A DNA stretch of 64,000 nucleotides, taken from NCBI GenBank assembly GCA_963765495.1, contig CAVXWP010000001.1, positions 591,898 to 655,897 on the forward strand, in the 5' to 3' direction. The position numbers and the translations under genes were made by a program. The first letter of the stretch is position 1. Each line of letters opens with the position of its first letter. The stretch is from Blastocatellia bacterium. Its GTDB lineage: Bacteria > Acidobacteriota > Blastocatellia > UBA7656. The notes beneath the pieces were generated by a model. It was not told the origin of the DNA. It was given only the letters and a program-made list of their open reading frames with translations, and made no database searches. This document shows, in pieces, positions 14,869 to 61,080 of the stretch.

Positions 14869-14930
14869 AATTTGAGATTTGAAATATGAGATTTGAGATT
14901 TGGGATTCCAGATTCCAGATTTCAGCATTC
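14868..14930. repeat. short direct-repeat cluster (GAGATTTGA / GATTCCA units) immediately 3' of the TonB-like gene
   Basis: gaatttgagatttgaaatatgagatttgagatttgggattccagattccagatttcag. Confidence 0.5.
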
Positions 14931-14965
14931 GACAGCAAGAGCCGCCCGTGTAATAATTTCGATCT

Positions 14966-16063
14966 ATGCGTTTAAGTATCAGGCATATTCGGGCGGCGCT
15001 CCTGTCGATCCTGCTTCTTTCAATCCCGGTCGCGGCGGCCAACTGGGAACGCGGTGTGGCGCTTTATAACAAGGGCGATTTCCGGGCGGCGCTGGCCGAG
15101 TTCCAGGACATTGTCCGAGAGCGCGCTGATGTTGCGGGCGCGTGGTATTACATAGGGCTTTGCGAGTTCAATCTGAAGCGCTACAACCGCGTAGAGTTGC
15201 CCCTTGAACGCGCCATTGATCTGCTTGAGATACAGACGCCCGCAAGCCCGGACATCGCGGGCGCGTGGTATACCATAGGCATTTCGCACTACCTGTCGAA
15301 CGAATACGATAAAGCCATCGAGCCGCTCAACCGATATATCGAAATCGCCACGAAGTCGAAGCGCGAAGTCGATCCAAGCGCGCGGGCGGCGCTTGGCCGG
15401 GCCTATTTTTTCCTCGAGCGTTATGATGAGGCCGCGCCCTTGCTTGCCGGCGCGGCGGCAAACGACAAGGCGAAAGAGAGCGGGACCGATTCTTATTATC
15501 TGGGCGCAATCTATTTCAAACGCGAAGACGACGACCACGCCATCCCCGCCCTCAAACAGGCTGTCAAAGCCAATCCTGAGGATACGGCCGCGCTTGAACT
15601 GCTCGCCGAAAGCCTTATGCGCAAGGCGCGCAAGCCCGGCTCCGACGCGCTCTGGCTGGAGTCGATTGAAGCGGGCGAGCGACTTCAGGCCATTCGCGAC
15701 GATTTGAAAACGGCCAACATTTTGGGGCGAGCTTACCTGGGCGCGCGGCAGTTCGACAAGGCCGTCGCGCCGCTTGAAAAACTGGCAAAGGCAAACCCGG
15801 ATAACGGGCAGGCGTGGCTTTATTATGGAATAGCGCTTTCGCGCAGCGGAAGGATGAGAAAGGCTATGGAGGCGCTGGAAATAACAATAACGCTGATGCC
15901 GGATTCAATCCCGGCGCTGTCGGAACTCGGTTACGTTTACGAAAGCGATAAGCAGTATCAACAGGCCCTTCGCATTTACGAAAAAGCCTTTAACGCCTCA
16001 AGTGACCCCGCGATGAAAGAGAGCATGGAGCGAGTCCGCGCTCTTGCCGCTCAACAGCCCTGA
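14966..16063 (+). CDS. TPR-repeat secreted protein
   Basis: Signal peptide plus repeated W/A-Y-x-G TPR helices. Confidence 0.75.
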   Translation: MRLSIRHIRAALLSILLLSIPVAAANWERGVALYNKGDFRAALAEFQDIVRERADVAGAWYYIGLCEFNLKRYNRVELPLERAIDLLEIQTPASPDIAGAWYTIGISHYLSNEYDKAIEPLNRYIEIATKSKREVDPSARAALGRAYFFLERYDEAAPLLAGAAANDKAKESGTDSYYLGAIYFKREDDDHAIPALKQAVKANPEDTAALELLAESLMRKARKPGSDALWLESIEAGERLQAIRDDLKTANILGRAYLGARQFDKAVAPLEKLAKANPDNGQAWLYYGIALSRSGRMRKAMEALEITITLMPDSIPALSELGYVYESDKQYQQALRIYEKAFNASSDPAMKESMERVRALAAQQP

Positions 16064-16159
16064 AGTATGCGGAGGCGGTGAGCAAAGGCGAGAGACCCGC
16101 AATCGACACGCCACTCGATTTCCCCTTATTTACGTTTCACTTTGTAGAGCAAAGCTCGT

Positions 16160-16522
16160 TCAGGCCGATGGAGACGCCTCGGCGGCTTTGAATGAGTCGA
16201 GGGCTTCTTTCTCGCCTTCGTATGTGTCAAAGACGGTAATCAGTTTGGTTATGGTCAGCAAATCCTGAATGCGTTTGGTCAGGCTTACGAGCTTCAACTG
16301 TCCTCCTTCGCGCTTGACGGTCGTATAGCTGCTGATGAGCGAGCCGAGCCCGGCCGAATCCAGATAGGTCACATCGCCCAGGTTTAGCAGTATCTGTCGC
16401 TGTCCATCGGCCAGAAGGTCTCTGATTCGGTCTTTGATTTGAAGGTCGCCTTCGCCTAAGATGATCTTGCCCGATAAATCAAGCACGCTCACACCGTTGA
16501 CGACCCTTTCTCTTATGTTCAT
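16160..16522 (-). CDS. STAS-domain anti-sigma-factor antagonist (SpoIIAA-like)
   Basis: MNIRERVVNGVSVLDLSGKI...DSAGLGSLIS; GAGGAG RBS before ATG at 16522. Confidence 0.8.
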   Translation of the reverse strand: MNIRERVVNGVSVLDLSGKIILGEGDLQIKDRIRDLLADGQRQILLNLGDVTYLDSAGLGSLISSYTTVKREGGQLKLVSLTKRIQDLLTITKLITVFDTYEGEKEALDSFKAAEASPSA

Positions 16523-16957
16523 AGCGTTCTCCTCGTTAATGTTCTCTGAAGTCGTGAAATTATCATAGCGCGGCACATGAGTAAACCCCTTGTGAGTTGA
16601 TCCGTCGCATGCGTGGCCTATCAGCCAGGGTCATTCAGTTTTCCAATATGTAGAAAGGGAAAAGGCGAATAGGCCGGGACGGACGCGTATGCGACGGATT
16701 TTCGCGGATCTGACTCTATATGATTTAATCCGAGTAGGTCAGCTGCAATTCCCCGTCAGCGTGCTGCGGCTCCATTTCAACTCCCTCTTGCGCGATACCT
16801 GCAGCTTGCTGCGAGGAGCTTAATTATTTTTTCCGCCTAAAATAATTCAAAGTTCTCCTTTTGTCCTCAACTCAAGAACTGAATGGCCCTGCCTATCAGG
16901 GCATGTCTTTCCTTCAAATCCACCTCTGAAGATTATCGACGACGCTTGCCAAAAAAA

Positions 16958-17006
16958 TCGGCGCGACCGCTTCAAGAAATTTCTTGAAGCGGTCGCGCCT
17001 TTTATC
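16958..17006. terminator. bidirectional intrinsic terminator (20-bp perfect stem flanked by an A-tract and a T-tract)
   Basis: gccaaaaaaatc-GGCGCGACCGCTTCAAGAAATTTCTTGAAGCGGTCGCGCC-ttttatc. Confidence 0.65.
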
Positions 17007-17036: not shown

Positions 17037-20000
17037 TCATCTCAGTTTTGTCGTAGGATCTCCGAGCAATACCCAGGTCCGGCGCACGTCCGGATCGGTT
17101 ATCGCAGATTTCGCACGTCTCGTCGCTTCGCCGAGCGTCAATCCTTCGCCGCCGAACAAGCGCCGGTACGCTTCCTGATTCATCAGCCATTGATCGCCCG
17201 GTTGTGTAGTCCCTGTCGAAGCCCACACGGCTACTGCTCCTCCCTGTGTTGACTTCAACATAGACTCTGCAAGAGAGTCGACCGACGGGTCTTCAAAGTA
17301 CCCGTTCAGACACGTCATGGTGATAAAGAGCGACAACTGATTTCTGTTTGTCAGCGCGCTTGCGTCTCCCGAGGTCAGGATATTGCCTCTCCACAGATTC
17401 AACGATCCGTGACCTGTGTAGTTGACTATCTTTGCACCACGATTGATCGCGTCTATGATCTGGCCCCTCGTGGTCGCGTCGTCTGTGATACCCCGATCTA
17501 TCTCTTCGACTCTGAGCGAGCCGGGGATCAGCGCCCTTAAGGCCGTGTTCATCTCCGCGAAGTTCATCCCATCGTTGCTGTCGGCCACAAGCACTACGCT
17601 GCTTCCCGCGCGGCTATTGTCATAGCCTACGATCTTGCCGACCATAATTGATGCTTCCTGCGCGGTTCTAAACGGCAATCGCCCAAGCGCCACGTTCGCT
17701 ATCGCGTCACCATCCGGGTCCACGAGCGCATCGTCGCTTGCGGTCTCCATCAACGCCGTGTCTACAAGCTTCGTAGGCACGAGGTCTGTCACCCCGTATC
17801 CGAGATAGTCTCTCGGGTCGTAGCTTGCGTCTCCGGCAAGCAAGACGTGAGTCGGCTTCCGCTTCCAGCTTGTTATGGCGTAATTCAGGAAGTCTTCAAC
17901 CGCCTGCGCGCTCTTGTTTCCGAAGTTGAACTCGTCATAGATGTCTTCGACCTTTATCACACCGACGGCCATCTTCTGGCTCTGCCTGAGCGCCTTCAAC
18001 TGATCAAGCGCCCCCGCGTACTGCTTCGGTGTGATTATCAGGAAATCGGCCCCGTTCGAGGTTTGTCTCAAGCTCGACGGTTCGTTTGCTTCGGCAGATG
18101 CCACCTGCCTCACCTGATCGGAGGCATAGGCAAGCATGGTTCTCTGCCCCGATCCCTGCGCGAGCACCGTGATCGAGTAGCTGCCTTTTTGATTCACAAC
18201 CGTCCCGCTCACTTCCTGTACAACGTTCGGGTCGGTCACATCCATTACTTTGATCTGGCTGCTCGTGAACCCGCCGATTGTCACCGTCTGTTTGGCATCG
18301 GCCGTCAGTCTGAGGGAGTTGTTTTCAGCCGCGTAGAGATGCCGATAGCTGATGCGTGTGTAATCGATAAGGTTCACATCGGTCCCGCCGTTGAGACTCA
18401 GCAGGCTTATGACATTGTCGCCGTCTCTCAACTGCGACTGCAAAACAGGAATCGAGAGTGTGCCCTCTTCCTGCCCGTTGAAGCTCAACTCGCCTACACT
18501 CACTCCATTGAGTTGGATGCTCACCCGGTGCGGAACCTGCGTCACACCTTGCACGGCGACTTCAATCAATGCGTTTGATTCAACCGACCTATCCAACTGT
18601 CTGAGAGTCAACGTCTGATCCGCCGATGATGACGAGGTTATGACCGCGCCAAAGAAATTCTCTTTATCGCCGTTTCTAAGCGACGAGAAATAGATCGTGC
18701 GGTCACGGCGTTCGACCGTATAGCCGAATCCGCTCGGCCCGGCAACAAGCGTCTTGCCTGACGGTGCGGTAGCGATCCTCTTGCCTGCCGATGCGCCTTC
18801 GACGAGCCAGTAGACCCGCGTGTCAGTTGAAGGCGTATCGAGCCCGAGTCCATAAAATTCGATTGAATCCGAGGCATCAAATCGCCCGTCACCTTCTCCG
18901 TTGACCCGGATAGGCACTTCAACCCCGCCTACGAACAATTGCAGGTTGCGCGGGTTGACCGTCGAAGCAAGACCCGATTGCACGAGTTCAGGCTGAGTGA
19001 CGCGATACCACGCTTCGTTCTTGACCGACAGTTTGACCGCTGGTTGAGCGGCAAGAGTCGATTGGAGACTGACAAGCGCCGGGTGACAACTGAGCCGGAG
19101 AGGCCGCGCGACGTAACGATGTCGAGCCGGTTCCAAGGCTGAGTTGAGAGGCGTGCTGTCCGAGCCTCGCAAGGAATGTGGCGCGGGATTCGGAGATGGA
19201 TTTGCTTTGACTCGACGTGATGTCAATCGGACCATAGAAATTGGACCTGCCCTTGAGATCAACATCTTCGATCCAGTACCTGACACCCTTTCCACCCGAT
19301 GAAGGAATATCGAGCCACGCGTAAGAAAGCCCCGCATTGAGCGCGGTGTCAGCGCCCGCAACCAGAGCCGATCCGGCGATCAGTTGAGGCGTTATGCGGA
19401 CGCGCTGTCCGTTCTGCTCGCGGTACACATTGTAGCCGAGGTTCTGGACTTCGTTGGCCGTCTGCCACTCGATTGCAACGCGCCCGTCGTCGTAGCCCGT
19501 GGCTTTGGCCGTATCGAGTTTGACGGCGGTCGGCACGGTTATGATGATCAGGTTGTTGCCGGTCAGGCTCTGCCCGTCCGGGTTTATGATCGTCACATTT
19601 TGCGTGCCGGTAGAGGCGGCGGTCGTGTTGAGATTCAGCGTCACCGAGGTCGGGCTGTTATAGGTTACGCTGTTGACTATCACTCCGCCCGTTACGGTCG
19701 CGTCTATCCGGCAATTAAAGCCCGCGCCCGGATCATAGAAACCTGATCCGTTGACCACGGTGCCGGTGATCGTGACATTGAAAGGAAGTCTCATTCTGAG
19801 GGACGGCAAACGGCGTGGACATAGAGGGAGTCGCCGGAGGCGGAGCCAGCAGCTTCACAGCCCTCACGCCATAAGTGTTTGTCCCGTTGCAGTATTCCTG
19901 AATGGTCCATATCGTCATGTCGTCGCAGGGGTCGAGGCTCGTGTACGAGTAATCGCCCCAGCGGCGTCCGCCCCCCCCGCCCGGATCGCTCGGCGGATTG

Positions 20001-21896
20001 TAAGCCGTGCTGCTCGCGGTATAGCCCAGAAGCGTGGACCCGCCCGGTCCGTCTCTGAGCGTGCCGAGCGTATCGCCCGCGAGGCGGCCCGTCGTGAAGG
20101 CGTTTATGCGCTCGCTTGTTCCGGCGATGCTGCATCCGAGCGCCGCGTGCCCCTGCCCGGAAACCATTATAGAAGGTATCCAGTAGTTTCTCTGATTTGC
20201 GTCAACTATTCGCAGTATTGTCAAACAGCGTGCCCGATTGACGAACAGTGGGCGTAGTGGTCGAGGTTTTGAATCTCGTACCACCGCACAGCATTACGAT
20301 TGCGAGGAGCGGTCGCTCCCACCTGTGGCATTTACGCCTGTATTATGGGCGGTCCACAGGCGACCGTTTCTCAGGTGTGCCGCGTACAATCTATCGTCGA
20401 GGCTATCGAGCCTGCCGTTGTTGCCGCCCGTGTTACCGAGATGCGGAACCAGCACAGAGGCGTTAGTGGTTGTAACGGTCAGTAGGATGTTCGCCGAAAT
20501 CGTAGGCGTTCCACCGGGATTGGTGATGCGACGAAAATCCAATCGGCTGAAGAAGCGCCGCATCAACTCCTACGAAGTACCCCACCGCCGTAGGCCCCGT
20601 ATTGTTCGGGTCGTAATTATCAACACCTCTGGGCGCAAACGGACCCGTAGAGCCGACTACCAGATTTGCAAATGTGGTGAATACGATTGGCCCGGCCCCG
20701 AGTATCGAAGATTTTCTGATGACATACGCATTCGTATTTACGAAAGAGCCGGCCAACGAAAATTGATCGGTGCCGATATAAAGGGCATCCGCGTCTATGC
20801 CAAGCGACGGGTAATCGGCAAAATTGGTTGCGTCTGATTGAAACTGGAAGAAAGTCCAGACCGTGGCTCCCGTCAGTACGCTGTTGCTGCTCACAGCAAA
20901 CAGTATGCGATTCGGCCTGGTCGTAGCGCCGGTTGTGCCGTTCAAGACAACGTCAATGATGGTCAGGAACCAGCGACCCGACAATCGGTCATAGCGCACA
21001 TTCGGATCGGATGTAAATGCGACCTCGCCCACCCCCGGCGTGCTAATGACCGTGGCGAAAAAGACATCCGAGTCCACATTCAAAACACCATCGGCCACCC
21101 CTGTGTCCTTATTGAATGTCCGTATGCGACCGTTGAGGAATACGAGAAACTGCGACGGGCCGACAGCGCCCATCGTGTCGGGAGGAAAGGCTCCGGTCTC
21201 GGTCGGGCCGGTCGCGCCGTCAAAGGCGGTGCTCGGCGTCTGCGGGCCGGAGGGGAGAGGCGCTGCTTCGGGAGCGGATTTATCTACAGGGGGCCATTGC
21301 GGCGCGTCTATCGCTCCGGGCGCTTGCGGAAGGTTGCTTCTATCGGGGCCTTCCAACTCTCGCATAAGGCTTCGCGGATTGAACTTTTTGGCCGGAGTTG
21401 CGGCCTGTAAATCCATGATCTCGGCCGAGGTCTTTTGAATGCCTAAAGCGCCGTATTGCGGCGTGCCGACCATTTCGCCGATGCCTTCTCGCTGCTCGGA
21501 TCGGTCGGCCTCTTTGGCCTCTTCCGATTCTTCCTTTTCAGATTTCTCGGTTGATTTGATTGATTTTGTTGATTTCGGGTCAACGCTCTTCTTGGCGGCA
21601 GGAGCTGCGCCCGATCCTTTTGATACCTTTTGAGCAGAGATAACGGCTGTAAAGGAGAGGGCCACAAACAAGCAAAGCAAAAAAGCTATAGACTTGCGGT
21701 TGGCCAATCTCGCCCGAGCAGCAATCGCTGAAGTGAATATGGAATAAAGCTCTCTTTTCTTCATAATTATTTTTCTGATCCTCCCTACTTTAAGTAACTT
21801 CCAGACGAGCCAACCGATTCGGTGAATAATCGACCTGCCGGAGTACAAGTGCGACGAACTGTTACAACTACCAAACCCTTTCACGTCAATTTCCAC
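17037..21896 (-). pseudogene. disrupted giant secreted peptidase C25 (gingipain-like) gene, about 1600 codons in 5 frame segments
   Basis: Segments run 21896-20463 (signal peptide, frame 0), 20566-20294 (frame 2), an in-frame TAA at 20294-20296, 20284-19733 (frame 2), 19809-18988 (frame 1) and 19361-17037 (frame 0). The last segment carries the C25 catalytic region (YTGHGS...MTCLNGYFEDP). The 774-aa piece has no signal peptide or plausible N-terminus. Confidence 0.5.
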
Positions 21897-39137: not shown

Positions 39138-39174
39138 CTTCTTTTTCTTCCAGTAATTCTTACGTGCGTCGCCG

Positions 39175-39642
39175 ATGAGGAAAGGGATAGTTGACATCAA
39201 CAGACGAGTAGAAGTAAGTCGAGGGGCCAGCTCTCGTTATCTTGAAGGGCTGGCTGTAGTAGGAGAGCCAAAGCCGTCGCGCAAACTCTTCGACGAGGTC
39301 TGTAGTCGAGTGGAGGTTGAAGGGAGAAAATACAGACCGCTTCGACCGATCACTCTCGAAGAGAGCGAACTGTTCAAGGCGGTTCTCAAAGGAGAGAACC
39401 AGATACAGGGTATTCGCAACGAAGCGATAAGAAAGCAGCTTTATGGGGAAGAAGAAAGAGATGAGCAAAAGCGTCGAAGAGCATCTGGGCGAGTGAGCAG
39501 AAAGCTGATGCTGTTGCGAGCACATGGATTGATATACCGAGTGCCGCGAACGAATTATTATCGAGTGACGAAGAAAGGGCATGAGGTTATGTCAACGGCA
39601 ATAAAGTTCCGCGAAAGCGACATCGCTTTGCTGGCGGCATAA
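39175..39642 (+). CDS. hypothetical protein, possibly a transposase C-terminal fragment
   Basis: Ends ...LLRAHGLIYRVPRTNYYRVTKKGHEVM, reminiscent of IS transposase C-termini; low GC. Confidence 0.3.
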   Translation: MRKGIVDINRRVEVSRGASSRYLEGLAVVGEPKPSRKLFDEVCSRVEVEGRKYRPLRPITLEESELFKAVLKGENQIQGIRNEAIRKQLYGEEERDEQKRRRASGRVSRKLMLLRAHGLIYRVPRTNYYRVTKKGHEVMSTAIKFRESDIALLAA

Positions 39643-39677
39643 TTTCTTGCTCAAAAAACAAGAAGTTGAGACCTTGT

Positions 39678-39725
39678 CACACAGAGACACAGAGATTTTT
39701 ATAATTCTTCTCTGTGTCTCTGTGC
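39678..39725. repeat. CACAGAG-type palindromic element
   Basis: cacacagagacacagaga - tttttataattctt - ctctgtgtctctgtg. Confidence 0.7.
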
Positions 39726-39776
39726 CTGCGGTGGCAAATATTTTCCCTGGCTGAACAGATTAACTTTGATGGCTGG

Positions 39777-41303
39777 TTACTGTTTTGGCGCTCGCTCGTA
39801 TAGCTCTGTCATCTCGCCCAGCCGGTCGCTCAGTTCTCTGGTCAGAGCGCCGGGTTTATATCGCCAGGTCCAGTTATCGTCCTGGCTCGCGGGCAGATTC
39901 ATGCGCGCGGAGGAATCCAGCCCGAGCACGTCCTGAAGCGGAATGATCGCAAGATCGGCGACCGAAGCCATAATCGCTCTTATAAAGTCCCAGTTGATTT
40001 CCTTGCCGGTTGAGTCGAGGTACTTAAGGCAAAAGGCGCGCTCGTGTTCGATCTGTTCGAGATCGCGGGTCGATCCTTCGCCCGGCTTGCTTTGGAACCA
40101 CCCTACGGTCGTGTCGTTGTCGTGCGTGCCGGTATAGGCCGCCACGTCCCGTATGTAATGATGCGGCAGATGCGTATTGGAACTGTCGCCGCCAAAGGCG
40201 AATTGCAAAACGCGCATTCCGGGGAAGTGGAACTCATCGCGCAACTCTTCAACATCGGGCGTGATAGTGCCCAGGTCTTCGGCAAGTATCGGAAGCTCTC
40301 GGAATTCTTGCTTGAGGGCTGAAAACAATTCGCGTCCGGGCACTTCGATCCATCGACCGTTTTCGGCCGTCTCGTCTGTAGCAGGAATCTCCCAGCAGGC
40401 GGCAAACCCGCGAAAATGATCTACGCGAACTATGTCTACCAGATGTAATGAGAACCGCATGCGATCAATCCACCACCTGAATCCGGTTTGTCTCATTCTG
40501 TCCCAGTCGTAGAGAGGATTGCCCCAACGCTGCCCCGTCTCGCTAAAGGCATCGGGCGGCACTCCTGACACCACCGTTGAGTTTCCCTTCTCATCGAGCC
40601 TGAACATATCCGGGTGCGTCCAGACATCGGCCGAGTTATGGGCTACGAAGATGGGCATATCGCCGATGATTTTTATCCCGTGTTTGTTGGCATATGATTT
40701 AAGCTCAAGCCACTGTTTGAAGAAGAGATATTGAAAGAATTTGTGCGCCCGGATGCGGTCGCTTAGCTCGTGGCGTGCGCTCTCAATCGCTCCCTTGTCG
40801 CGGCGAATAAGGTCCGGTTCCCACTCGTTCCAGACATCGCTTGAGCGCGATTCCTGAAGGGCGCGAAACAGCGCGTAATCCTCAAGCCAGGCCGAAGCGT
40901 AGCGGCTGAAGTTTTCAAAATCATCACTCAAGTGGTTATTGTTTCCGCGCTTGAAAGCCTTATAAGCCTTTTCAAGCAACTGATTTTTGTACTCGATTGC
41001 CTTGCCGAAATCGACGCGGTCGGCAGATGTTTTCGGGGCGCTGGCTGTATCGCTCTTTGATAAAAGTCTGTCGCCTGCCAGACGGTCCGGGTTTATGAGC
41101 AGCGTGTTTCCGGCAAAGGCCGAGAAGGATTGATAAGGTGAGTTGCCGTAACCGGGCGGGCTGAGCGGCAATATCTGCCAGAGGCTTTGCTTGCTTTCGG
41201 AAAGAAAATTTACGAAATCATAGGCATCGCGTCCCAGATCGCCTGCGCCGCAAGGGCCGGGAAACGACGTGGGATGCAGGAGTATTCCGCACGATCTCTT
41301 CAT
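39777..41303 (-). CDS. malQ: 4-alpha-glucanotransferase (amylomaltase, GH77)
   Basis: N-terminus MKRSCGILLHPTSFPGPCGAGDLG...SPYQSFSAFAGN is the classic MalQ signature. Confidence 0.9.
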   Translation of the reverse strand: MKRSCGILLHPTSFPGPCGAGDLGRDAYDFVNFLSESKQSLWQILPLSPPGYGNSPYQSFSAFAGNTLLINPDRLAGDRLLSKSDTASAPKTSADRVDFGKAIEYKNQLLEKAYKAFKRGNNNHLSDDFENFSRYASAWLEDYALFRALQESRSSDVWNEWEPDLIRRDKGAIESARHELSDRIRAHKFFQYLFFKQWLELKSYANKHGIKIIGDMPIFVAHNSADVWTHPDMFRLDEKGNSTVVSGVPPDAFSETGQRWGNPLYDWDRMRQTGFRWWIDRMRFSLHLVDIVRVDHFRGFAACWEIPATDETAENGRWIEVPGRELFSALKQEFRELPILAEDLGTITPDVEELRDEFHFPGMRVLQFAFGGDSSNTHLPHHYIRDVAAYTGTHDNDTTVGWFQSKPGEGSTRDLEQIEHERAFCLKYLDSTGKEINWDFIRAIMASVADLAIIPLQDVLGLDSSARMNLPASQDDNWTWRYKPGALTRELSDRLGEMTELYERAPKQ

Positions 41304-41389
41304 TCAAATCCTCAAATAGATAATTATGACGGGCAAGAGAACTGATTTGACGCGCCGAAACCGGGAGCCGAAATCAGGGGCCGAGCGGA

Positions 41390-41638
41390 TCAGGCTATGC
41401 CTGCGCCTCGCGTTTTTATCGTAGTTAAAAGTGCTTTCTTACTGGAGGATTTTAACTGGCGCAATTCTCGCAAGGCTCCTATCTCCTGGCTCAACTGCCG
41501 CAGCAGTGACATCTCCCTGCTCAATGATTTTACATCCTTCCTGAGGTCGGACTTCAGGGTCTGTATTTTCCTTGTCCTAGCATCGATCAAACGATCCAGA
41601 GCGACAAGCTCTTCAACGGGGAATCTATTCTCTTTCAT
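41390..41638 (-). CDS. hypothetical small coiled-coil protein (82 aa)
   Basis: MKENRFPVEELVALDRLIDARTRKIQTLKSDLRK... with GAGGTG RBS. The track N-terminal extension lies in an AT-rich non-coding region. Confidence 0.4.
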   Translation of the reverse strand: MKENRFPVEELVALDRLIDARTRKIQTLKSDLRKDVKSLSREMSLLRQLSQEIGALRELRQLKSSSKKALLTTIKTRGAGIA

Positions 41639-42070
41639 GCTGCACCTCTTATGCCGATGCTGAAACATACGGCGTCCACAAACTGACTGGATTCTACCAC
41701 ACTTATTATAGCTATTGTCATCAATCCTAATCCCAGCAAGAAATATTCCACAGTTTTCGAGCAGAGCCGTTTTATTTTTCAATAGTCTTTTTGGCATTTG
41801 CGGCCCGCGAGAGGCTGCCACATACAAAGACGCTAAAAAACTGCAAAGCCTTTCATAAGGTATCAGTCCTTCCAACAGGACATGGCCGGATCATTTAAAA
41901 ACCAAACGGCCCCAATCAGGCAAACCTGCCCCGTTCACTTACGCCGTTATTGCTCTTTACATTTGGCCGCATCATGGTGCACGCTATTTTCAGGCCGATC
42001 CAACCGGCTTTGTGGATTGCTTGATACTATATCTCGCGCAAGCGGCCTCGTGGCCGCCTACTTTTAATTA

Positions 42071-44017
42071 ATGCCAAAAAACAATAAAGCGAATACGCGC
42101 AGGCGGGCGTCAGCCGGGAAGCTCTCTGTGGGGGCCGAGGTATTGTCTGACGGTGGGGTTCGTTTCCGCGTATGGGCCTCAGGGTGCAAGAAGGTAGAAG
42201 TAGTAGTCGAAAACAAGACCGAATCTGGGCCGGGCCGATTGCCTCTGGCCGTTGAGTTGGAACCGGAAGCCGGTGGCTACTTTTCGGGTTTCCTACCCGA
42301 AGCAGGCGCGGGTGCTCTTTACAGATACAGGCTCGATTCCGGCGATGATCTTTATCCCGACCCTGCCTCGCGGTTTCAGCCCGAAGGTCCGCACGGGCCT
42401 TCTGAGGTCATTGACCCCAGCCTGTTTAAGTGGACCGACACAAAGTGGGGGGGCGCTCGCATTGATGGTCAGGTGATCTATGAAATGCACATCGGCACAT
42501 TCACCGAAGAGGGCACGTGGGAGGCCGCTACGCGTGAGCTCGACGAGCTTGCCGAGCTTGGCATAACTGCAATCGAGGTCATGCCGGTTCACGAATTCCC
42601 CGGTCGGTTCGGGTGGGGATACGACGGCGTAGACCTGTTTGCGCCGACTCGTCTCTACGGCGTGCCTGATGATTTTCGCCGCTTCGTTGACCGCGCGCAC
42701 GGGGCAGGGATCGCCGTGATTCTGGATGTCGTTTACAACCACCTGGGGCCGGACGGCAATTATCTCAAACAGTTTTCCGAGAATTATTTTTCAAAAGAGT
42801 ACGACACGGACTGGGGCGAAGCCATAAACTTCGATGGGGAAAATTCCGAACCGGTGCGCGAATTTTTCATCTCTAACGCCTGTTACTGGATCACGGAATT
42901 TCATCTGGACGGGTTACGCATTGATGCCACGCAAAATATTTACGACAAATCGGACGACCATATCCTCGGAGTTCTCACGCGTCGGGCCAGAGAGGCGGCC
43001 GGGAAGCGAGCCATCTTTGTCGTAGGCGAAAACGAGCCCCAACAGGCGAAGCTGCTCAGAAAACCGGAAGAGGGCGGTTACGGGCTTGACGCGCTCTGGA
43101 ACGACGATTTCCATCATACGGCGATGGTCTTTTTGACGGGACGCCGGGAAGCCTACTACACCGATTACACGGGCACGCCGCAGGAATTTATCTCGGCGGC
43201 AAAATGGGGATTTCTCTATCAGGGACAGCGCTACAAATGGCAAAAACAGAGACGCGGGACTCCTACGTTCGGGCTGGCCCCCTCTGCTTTTATCAATTTC
43301 ATACAGAATCACGATCAGGTAGCAAACTCTGCGCGAGGCGACCGCGTGCATCGCCTGACGGGTCCGGGGCTCTATCGCGCGATGACCGCTCTGATGCTGC
43401 TTATGCCGGGAACGCCCATGCTGTTTCAGGGGCAGGAATTCGCCGCATCGAGCCCGTTTCAATACTTTGCCGATCACGCGCCCGAGCTTGCCAAACTTGT
43501 GACGCGTGGCCGCCTAAAGTTCCTCTCTCAGTTTCGGAGCCTCGCGCTCGAAGAGATGCACGCGGGGATTGATGAGATGGCCCCAAACGATCTGGAGACC
43601 TTTACGCGCTCGAAGCTCGATTTCGCGGAGCGCGAGCGCCACAAAGAGATTTATGAAATGCACCGCGACCTGCTCGGGCTGCGTCAAAACGACGCGGTAT
43701 TCAGCGCGCAGAAAAAGGGCGCGCTTGACGGGGCGGTGCTCGGGGCCGAGGCGTTTGTCTTGCGCTTCTTCGGGGAGGGCGGAGACGACCGGCTTCTGAT
43801 TGTAAATCTCGGCGAAGACATGCGTTTTGACCCGGCCCCCGAACCATTGCTTGCGCCGCCCGAAGAGAAGAGGTGGCAGGCAATCTGGTCCAGCGAAGAC
43901 CCTCGATATGGAGGGTTGGGAACGCCTCCGCTCGATACGAAAAAGAACTGGCAACTTCCGGGGCGTTCGGCTGTCGCCCTTCGGGCAATACAGAGGGAGG
44001 ATGAAGAAAATGAATGA
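42071..44017 (+). CDS. treZ: malto-oligosyltrehalose trehalohydrolase (GH13 with CBM48)
   Basis: VRFRVWAS (CBM48), VILDVVYNHLGPDGNYL and GH13 catalytic regions. Confidence 0.75.
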   Translation: MPKNNKANTRRRASAGKLSVGAEVLSDGGVRFRVWASGCKKVEVVVENKTESGPGRLPLAVELEPEAGGYFSGFLPEAGAGALYRYRLDSGDDLYPDPASRFQPEGPHGPSEVIDPSLFKWTDTKWGGARIDGQVIYEMHIGTFTEEGTWEAATRELDELAELGITAIEVMPVHEFPGRFGWGYDGVDLFAPTRLYGVPDDFRRFVDRAHGAGIAVILDVVYNHLGPDGNYLKQFSENYFSKEYDTDWGEAINFDGENSEPVREFFISNACYWITEFHLDGLRIDATQNIYDKSDDHILGVLTRRAREAAGKRAIFVVGENEPQQAKLLRKPEEGGYGLDALWNDDFHHTAMVFLTGRREAYYTDYTGTPQEFISAAKWGFLYQGQRYKWQKQRRGTPTFGLAPSAFINFIQNHDQVANSARGDRVHRLTGPGLYRAMTALMLLMPGTPMLFQGQEFAASSPFQYFADHAPELAKLVTRGRLKFLSQFRSLALEEMHAGIDEMAPNDLETFTRSKLDFAERERHKEIYEMHRDLLGLRQNDAVFSAQKKGALDGAVLGAEAFVLRFFGEGGDDRLLIVNLGEDMRFDPAPEPLLAPPEEKRWQAIWSSEDPRYGGLGTPPLDTKKNWQLPGRSAVALRAIQREDEENE

Positions 44018-46055
44018 AGTGATTCACAAAGTGCCTCTCAAAGAGGCAAGCGAGGATGGATCAGATCCGCTGGTCTCACGTGAATGGCTGGTAACGAACG
44101 GGCTTGGGGGGTACGCTTCGGGGACGATTTCAGGCGTCCTGACGCGGCGGTTTCATGGGATGCTCGTAGCCTCGCTGCCCGCGCCGTTCGGTCGAATGAT
44201 GATGCTCAACAAGGTTTCGGAGCGGGTCCATCTGTCGGATGGTTCGACTATCCGGCTCGACGGAGAAGACCACATTGATAAATCCTTAAACCTGTATGAT
44301 GCGAAATATCTGACCGGGTTCCGGCTCGAAATGGGGTTGCCCGTCTGGCGCTATGAAATCGAAGGCACGATTCTGGAAAAGCGCGTCCTTCTACCTTACA
44401 AGCAAAACACCGTCTATATCACCTACACCATGCTTGCCGGAGACGGCAAAATAAGGCTTGAACTGCACCCGGCTGTTCAGTTTCGCCCGCACGAAGGAAG
44501 GTTGGACGTGAAGACGCAGAAGCCCTACCGGCTGGCGATAGTCGAGGATCGTTATGAGTTGTCAAGCGACGCTCAATTGCCGTCGCTCAGGATGCAGATT
44601 TACTCCAAGCAGGAAGCCTTCACATTTTCTAGAAAGCATATACGCGACCTGTGTTATCAAAGGGAGCAGAGCAGGGGGTACGATTACACTGGCGATCTGT
44701 GGAGCCCGGGTTATTTCCACGCGGAGCTTAGCGAAGGGAGCGCCGCGACGCTCGTAGCCTCTACCGAAGAATGGGAGACCATTCATGCCATGCCGCCAAG
44801 CGAGGCGTTTGATTCCGAGTGCGAACGCCGCCGCCAGTTGCTCAGCGCGGCGCACGTGAAGGCTCAGGAGGGAACGGCCGCCGAACTTGTGTTTGCCGCC
44901 GACCAGTTCTTGATAACCCCCGCCGGTCGCGTGGAAGACGCGGCGCGCGCTCACGCTTCAGGCGAAGAGTTACGCTCGGTCATAGCCGGTTACCACTGGT
45001 TCACCGACTGGGGCCGCGACACCATGATCAGCCTCGAAGGGCTGACGCTTGTGACCGGACGCCAGAAGGAGGCCAACTGGATACTGCGCACCTTCGCGCA
45101 TTACATCCGCGACGGCCTGATCCCGAATATGTTCCCCGAAGGCGAAAAGCAGGGCCTATATCACACGGCTGATGCCACGCTCTGGTTCTTTCACGCGATG
45201 TCGCGCTACGTCGCCTCCACAGGTGATCGAGAGACTTTGCGAGTGCTGCTTCCTCGCCTGATAGAGATCATAGACCATCATCTGAAAGGCACGCGCTTTG
45301 GCATCAAGGTAGACCCGAGTGACGGGTTGTTGACTCAGGGCGAGGAGGGCTATCAACTTACGTGGATGGATGCCAAGGTCGGCGATTGGGTAGTGACTCC
45401 GCGCCGGGGCAAGGCCGTCGAGATAAACGCGCTGTGGTACAACGCCTTGAGATGTGTGGAAGAGTGGGTGCGCGAAGCGCAGAATGAAGATAAGGCGCGT
45501 CCCTTTGCCGAGCACGCCGACCGCGTCCTCAGATCGTTCAACGAGCGATTCTGGTATGAGGAAGGCGGGTACCTTTACGACCTGATTGACGGCGAGCACG
45601 GAGATGATCCCGCCTTACGACCGAATCAGATATTTGCCCTATCGCTCCCTTACGCGATTCTCGACCGCGAGCATTGGGAGCCGGTCGTAGAGATCGTGCG
45701 CAAACAATTGCTCACACCTGTCGGGCTCCGCTCGCTCGCGCCGGGGCACGCGGATTACAAGTCCACTTATGACGGCGACCTTCACGCGCGCGATGCGGCC
45801 TATCATCAGGGAACGGTGTGGGGATGGCTGATCGGCCCGTTCATTGACGCGTGGCTCAAACTGCACCCGGAAGACATCAAGGGCGCAAGAGAGATGCTCG
45901 AAGGATTCGTGCCTCATCTGGATGAATTCGGCGTAGGCTCGATAGCCGAAATCTTCGACGCCGAACCGCCTTATCATCCGCGCGGCTGTATCGCTCAGGC
46001 ATGGAGCATAGCCGAAGTGCTCCGTTGCTGGGTGAAAACGACAACTGAGGGATGA
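44010..46055 (+). CDS. glycogen debranching enzyme, amylo-alpha-1,6-glucosidase (GDE_C/GH133-like)
   Basis: ...FTDWGRDTMISLEGLTLVTGR...; its start overlaps the treZ stop; GGGAGGA RBS. The track start at 43827 is rejected. Confidence 0.75.
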   Translation: MNEVIHKVPLKEASEDGSDPLVSREWLVTNGLGGYASGTISGVLTRRFHGMLVASLPAPFGRMMMLNKVSERVHLSDGSTIRLDGEDHIDKSLNLYDAKYLTGFRLEMGLPVWRYEIEGTILEKRVLLPYKQNTVYITYTMLAGDGKIRLELHPAVQFRPHEGRLDVKTQKPYRLAIVEDRYELSSDAQLPSLRMQIYSKQEAFTFSRKHIRDLCYQREQSRGYDYTGDLWSPGYFHAELSEGSAATLVASTEEWETIHAMPPSEAFDSECERRRQLLSAAHVKAQEGTAAELVFAADQFLITPAGRVEDAARAHASGEELRSVIAGYHWFTDWGRDTMISLEGLTLVTGRQKEANWILRTFAHYIRDGLIPNMFPEGEKQGLYHTADATLWFFHAMSRYVASTGDRETLRVLLPRLIEIIDHHLKGTRFGIKVDPSDGLLTQGEEGYQLTWMDAKVGDWVVTPRRGKAVEINALWYNALRCVEEWVREAQNEDKARPFAEHADRVLRSFNERFWYEEGGYLYDLIDGEHGDDPALRPNQIFALSLPYAILDREHWEPVVEIVRKQLLTPVGLRSLAPGHADYKSTYDGDLHARDAAYHQGTVWGWLIGPFIDAWLKLHPEDIKGAREMLEGFVPHLDEFGVGSIAEIFDAEPPYHPRGCIAQAWSIAEVLRCWVKTTTEG

Positions 46056-47605: not shown

Positions 47606-48088
47606 CTCCTGTCATGGTTTGATTGCTGTCTTTAGATTTCTATCATCCGGGCTCGCCGATTGGTAGAGCGCGGCAGAGGTTTGAGTGTGACGCGAGCGGC
47701 TTAATAAGCTGAAAGGCGGTTGATCACAGAAGAGGTCGGGCTGCGCGCTAATTCTCCAATTAAACATTTTGCGTCTGCCGGACCATGTGCTATTATCCGT
47801 TCAGTTTCGCCACATCTGTATATATGGCGCAACCGTTTGGAGGCTGAATCGGGGCGGTTCGAGCAAGAAACGCTTGCCGGTAGAATTAACTCGATCAATC
47901 AAGCAGCCGCCTGGAAGTAATCTCGAATTTAATGGCTACGGTACCCCTCGCCAACTAATGATGAGTAAATCGGCGTGGCTTGCGGTTTGCCGGGCAAGTA
48001 ACCGCTGTTTTGAGTGCCCGAATTTTCAAAGTATAGTAGAATAATTGTGCCCGAAGTTAGAATTGGCCCGCGCGAGGAGTTTAAGAAG

Positions 48089-50095
<2,007 letters not shown>

Positions 50096-54363: not shown

Positions 54364-57300
54364 ATGACTCACATTGGCATCAGGGCATTTCGCATTCTTA
54401 TGATTTGCTGCGTAGTTTCCATTTATACGCCGATAGGCCTGTCGCAGGGACAGACCACGGGAGCTATCCAAGGACGCGTTTATGACATTGACAGTGGCGC
54501 AGGGGTTGCCGGTGCAACGGTCACGGTCAGGAATCAGGACCTGGGCCTTGAGCGCTCGACTGTCACGGGATCAGACGGGTCTTATACGCTTAATATCTTA
54601 CCGCCGGGCGCTTATACAATCACTGCTACACATCCCCAATACGAGGCTGATAAAAGCTCGGAGCTATCGGAGGCCAGAAATTTCGCGGTTCGCCTTTCTA
54701 CGATAAATCAGGTTCAGCAAAGGCTGATAGGATTAAGAAAGATCGGTGCGGTCTCGCAAACTCCGGGCAATCCGACCACGCCCCCTACCACGCCCCCGAC
54801 CGCACAACCCGGCACGCAGCCGCAGACTCAGCCTGCGACACAGGGGGGGGAATCGCAAGGCGAGCAATTGACCAACACCGTGTCGCCGACAAGGATTGAG
54901 AATTTTGATACCCGCCAATTAGTCTCTTTGCCTCTGGCTTCAACCCGGACATTTGATGATCTGGCTTTTCTGGCCGCCGGAGTAGCCCCTCCGCCACAGG
55001 CCATAGGTCAGATAGTCGGGCCCGGCGTTGGCGCAGGCGTTGGCACATCGGGGCAGTTTTCGGTTAATGGAGCGCGCTCTCGCTCTAATAATTTTACGGT
55101 GGACGGATCGGACAACAATGACCCGGATGTCGGTGTGCGTCGTCAGGGCTTTGTCACGCTTATTCCACAGCCGATAGAATCGGTGCAGGCGTTTGCGATT
55201 GCTACCTTATTATGGGATGCCGAATTCGGGCGCAATCTCGGGTCGCAGGTCAATGCGGTGTCCAAGGGTGGCGGCAACGAGTTTCACGGGCAACTCTATG
55301 GATTTTTCACCGATTCAAGCCTGAATGCGCGCAACTTTTTCGACTATACGGGCGGAGACTCGGGCGGCAAGAATCCATTTACGCGGACGCTTGCGGGCTT
55401 TGCCCTAGGAGGACCTGTCACCCCCAATAGCACGCAGTTTTTTGGCAGCTTCGAGCACGAAAATATAAACTCTTCAACCGAACAGCATTTTGCAACGCCG
55501 ACCCTTGCCCAGCGTGGATTCGGTAACGCTCAGGCCATACTTGTGCCTCTTATAAACAACAACCTGGGAATAATTCCGGGGGGCGTCACTCCTTCCGGCA
55601 GCAATGCATTTTCGTTTTACCCGCTTCCAAATAATCCAGGCGGACCTTATGGCGCAAACACCCTTTCAAGAGTACTGCCATCCGATGGGGATGGCGTAAT
55701 CGCTTCGCTAAAGGTGTCTCGTCAGGTTACACCGGGCAGCACGCTCAACGTGCGATATAATTTTACGAATGATGAACGCATATTGCCCAGCGTCAATCGA
55801 GCCATCAACTCGACAATAGAGGCCGACTCTCAAACTCAGAATCTATCGGTTACTCTTGATAGCTCTCTAAAAATAAACCTCTTCAATCAGGCGCGATTCT
55901 CCTTTGGCAGAACGCGGCTTGATTTCCTCCCCTATGCCAACACTCCATTTATCTTCGACAGCACATCTTCGGGGGTCATCGGCGTAGTTGATTCGGGTGG
56001 TAACCTCATAGCTGTCCAGCCGTTTTCTTCAAGTACAGGGCCGCTCGGTCAGGTCACTATCGAACCCTTCAGCCCGGTCGGCGTTGACGTCTTCATCTTT
56101 CCACAAAAGCGCGTAAACAACACTTTTCAGTTTGCCGACACCCTGGCCATGAACTGGAGGACGCATTCCTACAAATTCGGCGCTGATATTCGACGAATAC
56201 AATTCAACAGCTTGCAGGATCGGAATTACAGACCCAGTTTAGTCTTTGGCATCGGGACGTTTGCAAATGCCACTTTAACCAATCAGGGCCTTTTTGTTGA
56301 TAGAACGCTTTTCGTCAGCCAGGGCGCAGACCTTGCGAGTCTCGGCCTTGCATCTTCGATTTTTCAGTCGATCACAGCAGGCGTGCCAAATTCCACTATC
56401 GGTTTGCGGGCTTTTGAGTACAACTTCTTTTTCAACGATAACTGGCGTATTCGGCCAAATTTTTCACTCGATTACGGGCTGCGCTATGAGTACAACACAG
56501 TGCCCTCGGAAGTAAATAATCGCATCGAGGATGCGATTACACTGAAGAATTTGCCGGTTCCGGGAAATTCCCGCTTTGACACACCCTCGCGCACAGCTGC
56601 TTTCAATAATGCGGTCAGCGCCTACAGGGCGGTTCTGGACGGACGCACAGGAATTTACGATCCGGACCGGAATAACTTTGCCCCCCACGTAGGATTTGCA
56701 TGGGACCCCTGGCGAGATGGAAAGACCTCGATTCGCGCCGGTTACGGACTTTATTATGATGCGATCCTCGGAGCCGTGGTCAGCCAATCGCGCAACGTAT
56801 TCCCAAACGAAATACCGTTTAATATCGACCCATCTTTTGCAGGGTTTGACATCCTGGGCAATCTGCTCAACCCCGCGTTTCTGGTTCTCAACGGAGATTC
56901 CAACGCTCCGCTGATAAGGCCGGGAACGATTAATCAGTTTGGGCTTGCGCCTGAGGATTTCGTCGCAGGGATCGGTCAATTATTTGTCCAGAACAGTGCA
57001 GCCGGGCTTGCCTTTACTCTCCCGGAAAAACACCTTCGCACTCCCTATGCGCAGCAATGGCACCTGACGCTGGAAAGGGAAATACTGAGAGATTATTTAC
57101 TGTCGGCGGGTTATGTGGGGACGAAGGGTACAAAACTCACACGGTTGACCACTCCGAATTTTGGCCCCAATGTAATCCCCTTCGCGGGGTTTGTAGATGC
57201 AAATACCGCATTCCCTCTCTTCCTGTTTGGACAATCTCTCGCCCCCACTCGCCCGAATCAGAATCTTGGCGCGTATCAGATATTCGAAAATTCGGCTAAC

Positions 57301-58140: not shown

Positions 58141-58297
58141 GGCAGTCTCGCCTTCTCTCAATCGACAACTTATGCCTCTGTTTGTCTGACAGCAGCCGTT
58201 GCCCTTTGACAAAGAGGGCTTGAATTTGACTCTGCCCGATGCGTGTTGTAGGATGACCCCCGATCAAAGCTCCGATTGTCAGAATTGGGAGCGTGCG

Positions 58298-60687: not shown

Positions 60688-61080
60688 CGGAAGAGTCCCT
60701 CGGGCGAGTTTCCCTTCCGTTTTCTGCGTCCCTTCAATGGTTGTGTCCCTCAACCAGAGAAGAAGAGGAGGTTATTTGACAGCCACAATCCAAATTCCCT
60801 CATGGTTGCCGAGTTGCCCGCAATATATCAAACCCTGTCTCTCATAAAAACCCTGCTTACTCATAAAGCAAAAAAAAGTATCGGTTCGCGCAGGAACCGA
60901 ACTTCGGTTCTCTGAAGAAAAGCCGGAAAATATGTCTCCGAGCCTAGGCCGGTTTAAATTCGTCGAAAAGGATTAATCATAGTGAACCGGGGGCTGCTTA
61001 AACCTCTGTCTCGCCTGGATGTAGATATGATATGATGCGCCGAGCGTTTAGACCTCAGAGATTCAGGAGTGTAAGAAATC

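Follow-up and report, generated by a model that had tools for sequence, protein, structure and literature searches.

Six +1 frameshifts in one secreted C25-family gene of a Blastocatellia bacterium: probable local consensus error rather than gene decay

In the stretch of 64,000 nucleotides that we analysed (the window), a long minus-strand gene for a C25-family protein is broken into several reading frames. Is this gene decaying in the organism, or was its sequence damaged on the way to the deposited assembly? A sequence-only reading of the locus had favoured decay and had described five pieces (21896–20463, 20566–20294, 20284–19733, 19809–18988 and 19361–17037). All five minus-strand open reading frames (ORFs) are found at these positions, but the start lies at the ATG at 21764 and not at the GTG at 21896, as gene calls on the source contig and on the independent Logan contig agree.

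One ancestral gene and its six frameshifts

Alignment to intact homologues had been suggested earlier as the means to locate the indels. A frameshift-aware alignment to five intact Blastocatellia homologues (1,565–1,579 aa) identifies six frame changes between 20560 and 19053, all of them +1 modulo 3 (Table 1), instead of the three frameshifts and one in-frame TAA that had been proposed. After six single-base deletions an uninterrupted ORF runs from ATG 21764 to the TGA at 17039–17037 with zero nonsense codons, and its length is within the range of the intact homologues. The TAA is not a genuine stop: across 20325–20200 homology follows the frames 0>1>2>0, and the short segments GATAPRNRNAVRWYEIQNL and TTTPTVRQSGTLFDNTAN hold the family-invariant residues R489, R493, W494, Y495, E496, Q498, P504, Q508, G510, T511 and F513.

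Table 1. Features of the locus, with positions in the window
Feature	Position	Strand	Remark
Whole gene	17037..21764	-	One ORF of 1,573 codons after six single-base removals
Signal-peptide-like N-terminus	21630..21764	-	MKKRELY...RKSIAFLLCLFVALSFTAVISAQ; read from translation
Conserved all-β N-domain (predicted)	19810..21245	-	Residues ~174–650; homologues and paralogue model
PorU-like C-terminal module	17040..19060	-	NF033707 profile, PorU 6za2; zero shifts inside
Peptidase_C25 catalytic domain	17040..18044	-	Pfam; His codon 17411–17409, Cys codon 17312–17310
Frameshift 1 (+1)	20545..20560	-	Candidate extra C at 20555, GATGCGGCG[C]TTCTTCAGC
Frameshift 2 (+1)	20318..20326	-	Candidate extra G at 20320, GCCACAGGT[G]GGAGCGACC
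Frameshift 3 (+1)	20256..20268	-	Candidate extra G at 20262, CAAAACCTC[G]ACCACTACG
Frameshift 4 (+1)	20201..20208	-	Candidate extra T at 20204, GCGAATAGT[T]GACGCAAAT
Frameshift 5 (+1)	19774..19807	-	Candidate extra C at 19780, ACTTCCTTT[C]AATGTCACG
Frameshift 6 (+1)	19053..19135	-	Poorly conserved linker
TAA	20294–20296	-	Not in the frame supported by homology; inside a 120-nt stretch with three shifts
Extra C relative to Logan contig L001	21853	-	89 nt upstream of the ATG, non-coding
Substitution relative to Logan contig L001	21739	-	ATA (Ile) in the window, ACA (Thr) in Logan; putative signal peptide
Bidirectional intrinsic-terminator-like hairpin	16960..16999	.	18 bp, perfect, 12 G-C pairs, T-runs on both strands; after the gene

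Five of the six shifts lie within the N-domain, in the segment that is the most conserved of the family (65% identity versus 44–57% elsewhere). Shift 6 is placed less sharply: of 76 single-base deletions tried from 19135 to 19060, 75 bring the frame back. None of the shift sites is a long homopolymer, and no shared motif (methylation site or slippery sequence) or stimulator was seen at the six of them. The run of eight C residues at 19971–19978, noted earlier as a place to check for indel errors, is in frame and not a lesion, as are the other 8-nt coding homopolymers, which indicates that overall consensus quality is high and that the failure is local. Each candidate extra base comes after a wobble position and would be a synonymous alternative; the alignment places the shifts between codons, and we dropped this regularity as evidence.

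The repaired gene is predicted to encode a signal peptide, an all-β domain, Ig-like linker domains, a PorU-like module and a terminal C25 domain with an intact His/Cys dyad. The N-terminus, read by eye from the translation, has the appearance of a signal peptide, with a basic n-region, a hydrophobic core and the residues SAQ. The N-domain has 1,454 homologues, many with different C-termini, and in the AF2 model of a paralogue (P0046) it is all-β with a pLDDT of 77. No family was matched by this region in the Pfam search, and the fold comparison gave no confident match.

Among the five pieces, Pfam recognizes Peptidase_C25 in the last one only (5.8e-80, residues 440–773). The PF01364 score of 269.7 bits passes the gathering cut-off of 23 and covers model positions 1–374 of 374, unchanged on the repaired protein. 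In a phmmer alignment with 1cvr, the His of YTGHGS is opposite His211 of RgpB and the Cys of MTCLNG is opposite Cys244, in agreement with the catalytic region named in the sequence-only reading. Both residues (H1447 and C1480) are present here, and neither column varies among 20 family members.

The same architecture recurs in more than 30 intact homologues of 1,560–1,582 aa. This supports the view, already taken earlier, that the locus is a single ancestral gene, with a secreted member of the C25 family of ~1,570 aa as its product, rather than a set of independent genes. Stand-alone C25 genes of ~670–710 aa that start near shift 6 with their own signal peptides were considered as well, but these proteins lack a signal peptide at the N-terminus and resemble truncated gene calls.

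An independent assembly, the neighbouring genes and the homologues

Logan contigs from run ERR11718635 match the window at 100% identity over 14.7 kb (31771–21854, 14869–16655 and 39143–42156). One of them (L001) enters the 5′ end of the gene and shows two differences from the window within 538 nt, at 21853–21316: it lacks the C at 21853 and carries the substitution given in Table 1. Apart from this 5′ end it is identical over 9.9 kb, and two further contigs (L002 and L084) are 100% identical throughout. The chance of both differences falling in these 538 nt is (538/15257)^2, or ~0.001, counting all aligned bases. Of the gene itself L001 takes in just the first 450 nt, ending at 21316, ahead of the first coding shift. 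An indel missing from the independent assembly, the mark of an artefact, is found at one non-coding site only. An exact look-up in Logan of the source-contig fragment ORFs C, D and E (P0243, P0121 and P0146) returned none on record, while neighbouring genes are present. The ERR11718635 contigs could stem from a sister strain rather than from the same population.

The repaired protein keeps 322 of 341 conserved columns (94%, at ≥95% conservation), and the 5.6% that deviate compare with 4.4–8.9% in intact lone-branch homologues, a weak test, given that identity to the nearest homologue does not exceed 59%. The repaired frame contains no nonsense codon, larger deletions are absent, and conserved residues are not lost in excess. 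The translated sequence thus suggests no substitutional decay beyond the six extra bases, within the reach of this weak test. If the six indels were neutral, several nonsense substitutions would be expected, and their absence argues against neutral decay.

Elsewhere in the window 30 other large ORFs span their Pfam models in full, and this is the only broken gene among ~31 examined. The six coding indels in one 4.7-kb gene stand against none in ~52 kb of other coding sequence, a clustering that is far beyond chance. The intactness of the other genes had been observed before and holds; it had also been taken to speak against sequencing error. Together with the intact coding 8-nt homopolymers it excludes uniform sequencing error, but not a local failure of the consensus. 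The bidirectional terminator-like hairpin after the gene and the STAS gene that flanks the locus, both pointed out earlier, are present.

Nearly all homologues from ~80 species-representative genomes read in a single frame, from which it follows that the family is not generally decaying. The best protein identity among 5.8 billion sequences is 59%, with no close orthologue, and none of the neighbour genes in the window adjoins the homologues. Some relatives are broken as well: the paralogue P0133, which lies on the same contig, is shifted, apparently by +1, and was not on record in an exact Logan look-up; in a homologue on a Flye-named ENA contig (L003), three of the four shifts are +1; and a homologue in another genome (L012) has one. 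Intact homologues in two other Nanopore MAGs (L007 and L010) indicate that this technology does not break the gene systematically. The second frameshifted C25 paralogue in this genome is also compatible with lineage-specific loss of function.

Origin of the extra bases

We consider it probable that the six extra bases are a local consensus error and that the gene is intact in the organism. The uniform +1 direction, the lack of substitutional decay and the disagreement with the Logan assembly all favour this reading. We infer both what the sequencing technology was and how the consensus would have failed. The source is probably a long-read metagenome assembly, judging from the 1.31-Mb contig (1,314,789 bp) and the related MFD Flye/Medaka MAGs. 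The MAG collection with the closest large contigs is Nanopore-only and was produced with Flye and one round of Medaka (PMC12313526), and assemblies of this kind are known to retain frameshifting consensus indels (PMC9262707). The conserved part of the gene may have recruited heterogeneous reads, from co-occurring strains, paralogues or related species, and at mixed positions the consensus step would have tended to keep the extra base. The outcome would be six surplus bases within 1.5 kb, with a seventh surplus base and one substitution just upstream, in a gene that would be intact and functional in the organism. The most conserved segment is where foreign reads would cross-map, and five of the six shifts are located there. 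Should the source assembly be HiFi, six clustered non-homopolymer insertions would be hard to attribute to error.

The sequence-only reading had preferred a decaying pseudogene to sequencing error. A genuine and very recent pseudogene, with real mutations in the population, a protein that is no longer made and perhaps a lineage-specific loss of C25, seems to us possible but doubtful. The frame is indeed broken in the deposited sequence relative to the five intact homologues, in the sole broken gene among those examined in the window, and at sites outside the long homopolymers that are the classic context of error; the frameshifted paralogue on the same contig points the same way, and the single shift in the L012 homologue suggests that inactivation does happen in this family. 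Yet the damage amounts to six extra bases of the same direction with the catalytic dyad intact, and the nonsense codons, larger deletions and excess loss of conserved residues that decay would bring are absent. Non-homopolymer single-base insertions, which such a pseudogene would require, are the rarest class of spontaneous mutation. All six shifts being +1 is also opposite to the deletion bias of bacterial pseudogenes, reportedly described by Mira, Ochman and Moran in 2001. Finally, the near-clonal Logan assembly, with 0 differences in 14.7 kb, departs from the window exactly at the gene. Ordinary neutral decay does not yield such a pattern, for which localized hypermutation would be needed.

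Such hypermutation, biased towards insertion, or an inactivation that targets the C25-family genes of this lineage, would account for seven insertions and one SNP within 2.8 kb against zero differences in 14.7 kb elsewhere, for a second C25 family member on the same contig with the same +1 type of lesion, and for flanks that are clonal with a sister population. We nevertheless regard it as very unlikely, as the sites have no sequence motif in common and a technical cause is the simpler explanation of the same pattern. We know of no mechanism for single-base insertions at such sites. Even less credible is a set of independent genes, each with its own start, or a single gene read through by programmed +1 ribosomal frameshifting at all six sites. 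Every piece is indeed an ORF with a start codon of some kind, and on the source contig the gene callers made separate proteins of four pieces, but single-ORF homology crosses every junction with the residue number unchanged, and the N-termini of the downstream pieces are out-of-frame translations of the preceding segment. The signal peptide is on the first piece only, domains would be cut mid-fold, and the six sites have neither a slippery motif nor a stimulator in common.

The finding itself is ordinary, and with a local consensus error as the probable cause it is mainly a caution: to a reader of the sequence only, a gene with six frameshifts mimics a textbook decaying pseudogene, and such loci would inflate pseudogene counts and inferences of gene loss from long-read MAGs. 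The repaired gene is a divergent member (59% identity at best) of a Blastocatellia family that fuses a widespread uncharacterized all-β domain to a PorU-like C25 peptidase, a point of modest interest for the study of secreted proteolysis among soil Acidobacteriota.

Comparison with PorU, gingipains and other known cases

The earlier label 'gingipain-like' is a loose one: the Peptidase_C25 domain with its catalytic His and Cys is present, but the PorU model fits better, although below its cut-off. The C-terminal 650 aa align to the NCBIfam model of PorU, the sortase of the type IX secretion system (T9SS) (NF033707, T9SS_sortase; 9.5e-78, model positions 64–732 of 1,095), with 261.9 bits for the last piece (P0146) and 252.6 bits for an intact homologue (P0001), both short of the equivalog cut-off of 420 bits. 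Among solved structures, too, the family profile matches PorU best (6za2, 1.4e-35). In contrast to the full PorU architecture, the match stops at position 732, where the protein also ends; the last third of the model (733–1095) is missing and an unrelated N-terminal region of 900 aa is fused ahead. No T9SS genes were noted among the ORFs scanned within the 64-kb window.

The gingipains RgpB and Kgp of Porphyromonas gingivalis (MEROPS C25; PDB entries 1cvr and 4rbm) have the Peptidase_C25 domain and its catalytic His and Cys in common with this gene, but in a single-sequence search the similarity is weak and limited to ~90 residues around the active site (2.4e-11). The gingipain arrangement of propeptide, Ig-like domain plus adhesin and T9SS CTD was not found, and neither PF18962 nor other gingipain domains were detected. 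From these sequence matches the C25 module appears closer to PorU than to the gingipains, while staying below the PorU cut-off.

The nearest relatives are the 'C25 family cysteine peptidase' proteins of Blastocatellia (for example P0001, P0006, P0013 and P0024; loci L004–L010), which are collinear over 93–100% of the repaired protein at 52–59% identity. They are single ORFs, whereas the gene here carries six +1 shifts. In this respect the locus resembles the gene fragmentation caused by consensus indels in Nanopore assemblies, where likewise a long gene is split into several called ORFs, the protein is otherwise undamaged and an independent assembly disagrees at the indel. It differs from the classic Nanopore errors, which are found in long homopolymers and genome-wide, in that the lesions are confined to one gene, fall outside long homopolymers and are all insertions.

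A single gene with six frame changes

With a provisional 1,570-aa protein made by joining the ORF pieces as the query, more than 30 intact homologues of 1,560-1,582 aa were found, with 52-59% identity across 93-100% of the query. Most belong to metagenome-assembled genomes (MAGs) of Blastocatellia, and some carry the name "C25 family cysteine peptidase". In tblastn, five of these proteins match the locus collinearly while stepping through three frames. As judged from homology, we consider the pieces to be one gene and not several. It is extremely unlikely that they are independent genes, or that the gene is decoded by programmed frameshifting: homology passes unbroken over every junction, the downstream pieces lack starts and signal peptides of their own, and the shift sites share no motif.

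The five minus-strand ORF pieces delimited in the sequence-only reading are all present, and the C25 domain is where it had been placed: Pfam Peptidase_C25 is matched by the last piece only (19361-17037; 5.8e-80, whole model covered). Gene calls at the locus on the 1,314,789-bp source contig are A (433 aa), C (144 aa), D (268 aa) and E (648 aa). The proposed terminator is found after the gene as a terminator-like hairpin with a perfect 18-bp stem (16960-16999) and T-runs on both strands, and the downstream neighbour is indeed the STAS-domain gene. At several related loci (L006, L007, L008 and L009) the 1,570-aa homologue is adjoined by one or two shorter C25 genes matching residues ~737-1570; no such neighbour is present in the window.

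Three frameshifts and one in-frame TAA had been counted originally. When five intact homologues are aligned to the locus by a banded protein-to-DNA method that allows frameshift states, each of them yields exactly six frame changes, all +1 modulo 3, and none within 21764-20560 and 19050-17040. Six single-base deletions restore one uninterrupted 1,573-codon ORF from ATG 21764 to TGA 17039-17037, and the TAA at 20294-20296 is thus an out-of-frame by-product, with no genuine nonsense codon. Around it lie two short homologous segments in other frames, GATAPRNRNAVRWYEIQNL in frame 1 and TTTPTVRQSGTLFDNTAN in frame 2, which align residue for residue with the intact homologues and hold the family-invariant R489, R493, W494, Y495, E496, Q498, P504, Q508, G510, T511 and F513. 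The start, formerly set at 21896, is moved to ATG 21764, as in the gene calls on the source contig and on a contig of the independent Logan assembly.

Features of the C25 gene, its repaired protein and the matching Logan contigs
Feature	Position	Strand	Observation
N-terminus			signal-peptide-like, judged by eye
Low-complexity stretch			in repaired protein
All-beta domain, conserved, ~480 aa	19810-21245	minus	no Pfam or NCBIfam model
Ig-like linker domains			in repaired protein
C-terminal module, 650 aa			ends in C25 domain
Frameshift 1	about 20550-20555	minus	candidate extra base 20555
Frameshift 2	about 20320	minus	candidate extra base 20320
Frameshift 3	about 20260-20262	minus	candidate extra base 20262
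Frameshift 4	about 20201-20204	minus	candidate extra base 20204
Frameshift 5	19774-19807	minus	candidate extra base 19780
Frameshift 6	19053-19135	minus	nearly any one base in 19135-19060 removable
Logan contig L002	14869-16655		100% identical to window
Logan contig L084	39143-42156		100% identical to window
Logan contig L001	31771-21316		identical except two differences

Accuracy of the window and comparison with other assemblies

As the sequence-only reading held, the other genes are intact: 30 further large ORFs span the full length of their Pfam models. Homopolymers of 8 nt occur only at 1453-1460, 19971-19978, 54843-54850 and 60870-60877; the three in coding sequence are all in frame, including the C8 run at 19971-19978 that had been flagged for a check on indel errors, which indicates that the consensus is generally accurate. 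Uniform sequencing error is thereby excluded and the cause is local to the C25 gene. The 211-nt stop-to-stop overlap at 43806-44017 is no frameshift, and both proteins are domain-complete; it lies within a glucan-metabolism cluster (39777-46055) with a 4-alpha-glucanotransferase (GH77), a CBM48/alpha-amylase/DUF3459 enzyme and a glycogen debranching enzyme (GDE_N/GDE_C). Elsewhere, two paralogous plus-strand genes (48014-50095 and 58190-60388) fuse a Ser/Thr protein kinase to an FGE-sulfatase (formylglycine-generating-enzyme-like) domain. The segment 37845-39642 has low GC (0.49 versus ~0.55). Its first ORF matches UPF0236 (transposase-like) weakly, and the one that follows, of 161 aa, has no family; L084 starts directly after the UPF0236-like ORF, consistent with a repeated element.

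Three Logan contigs of run ERR11718635 were retrieved by exact-protein look-ups of neighbouring genes. Both differences in L001 fall at the 5' end of the C25 gene, where position 21853 of the window is a surplus C and position 21739 reads T instead of C. There are thus no differences in 14.7 kb and two in 538 nt, for which (538/15257)^2 is ~0.001 taking all bases, or ~0.02 if just a quarter of the flank is treated as neutral. The extra C is of the same kind as the other surplus bases and lies at the edge of the same cluster. L001 reaches 450 nt into the gene, so its comparison stops before the six coding shifts. The fragment ORFs P0243, P0121 and P0146 of the source contig have no Logan record, whereas neighbouring genes have one.

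P0133, a C25-family paralogue on the source contig outside the window, runs into out-of-frame sequence after RVYWLVAGAGAGKRI; its "WIRVHRGAERPNH..." read one base later gives the family motif GFEYTVERNDRTIYFAALRNGEGENFFG (GFEYTVER..NFFG), and we infer a +1 shift here too. The N-terminus of P0133 looks truncated as well. A distant homologue in L003 (6035-10596; ENA ERZ25039586 contig_1009, 979 kb, Flye-named), which differs in its N-terminal region but shares the PorU-like C25 module, has four shifts (+1, +1, +2, +1) and is split into three called genes; it has an out-of-frame stretch internally, and the genes beside it look normal. Homologues in 80 species-representative loci are almost all single-frame, including those in the Nanopore MFD MAGs L007 and L010; the one shift is in L012. 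The MFD collection, which supplied the closest large contigs, was built by assembling Nanopore reads in Flye, followed by a single Medaka round (PMC12313526), and such assemblies are known to retain consensus indels that cause frameshifts (PMC9262707). In databases, many C25 proteins 668-713 aa long (P0176, P0178, P0184, P0196, P0208, P0218, P0231 and similar) lack a signal peptide and share a start at the conserved motif [MV]K[IL]..EGWYRVTQPEL (repaired residues ~895-905), many on 2-3 kb contigs. Short-read assemblies thus seem to break recurrently directly upstream of the C25 module, in the region frameshifted here.

Origin of the broken frame

Aligned with 35 intact homologues, the repaired protein retains the conserved residue in 322 of the 341 columns conserved at 95% or more. 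Its deviation of 5.6% falls inside the 4.4-8.9% range of intact members on similarly long branches, a weak test since even the closest relative shares only 59% identity. The catalytic dyad lines up with His211 and Cys244 of the Porphyromonas gingivalis gingipain RgpB, and neither the His nor the Cys varies in the family. Conservation along the gene is highest in the frameshifted stretch (65% identity to homologues versus 44-57% elsewhere). Beyond the extra bases the gene appears free of decay, within the limits of the weak column test, and six neutrally accumulated indels would be expected to bring dozens of substitutions and a few nonsense codons.

A local consensus error is probably behind the broken frame. 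Heterogeneous reads from strains, paralogues or related species would likely cross-map to the conserved segment and let an extra base survive the consensus step. Consensus failure fits better than natural decay because there are six surplus bases (seven with the upstream one) and none missing, no other damage, lesions only within the best-conserved 1.5 kb of a single gene on an otherwise accurate contig, and a near-clonal independent assembly that disagrees exactly at this gene. Real bacterial pseudogenes show a deletion bias and mixed lesion types, while here there are surplus bases alone, and ordinary neutral decay cannot give two differences in 538 nt beside 14.7 kb of identity. The "genuine decaying pseudogene" of the sequence-only reading is therefore unsupported as stated. 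A genuine but very recent pseudogene is somewhat unlikely, and a HiFi origin of the source assembly would favour real mutations; localized insertion-biased hypermutation is very unlikely. The finding is ordinary and serves mainly as a caution for pseudogene calls in long-read MAGs.

Domain organization and relation to PorU

At least 1,454 proteins (including P0042-P0120) contain the all-beta domain, with many different C-termini; they are from Acidobacteriota, Verrucomicrobiota, Eisenbacteria, Bacteroidota and others. The C-terminal modules fused to it are T9SS (type IX secretion system) CTD, DUF4214, FG-GAP, LTD, CarboxypepD_reg and C25. An AlphaFold2 model of a paralogue is all-beta (pLDDT 77) and has no confident structural match.

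The assignment to peptidase family C25 holds, while the "gingipain-like" label originally given is loose: the best solved-structure match is PorU, the T9SS sortase. The C-terminal module matches the PorU model (NCBIfam NF033707) at 9.5e-78, but scores below the equivalog cut-off and lacks the last third of the model, which argues for a PorU-like member of the C25 family that is neither PorU nor a gingipain.
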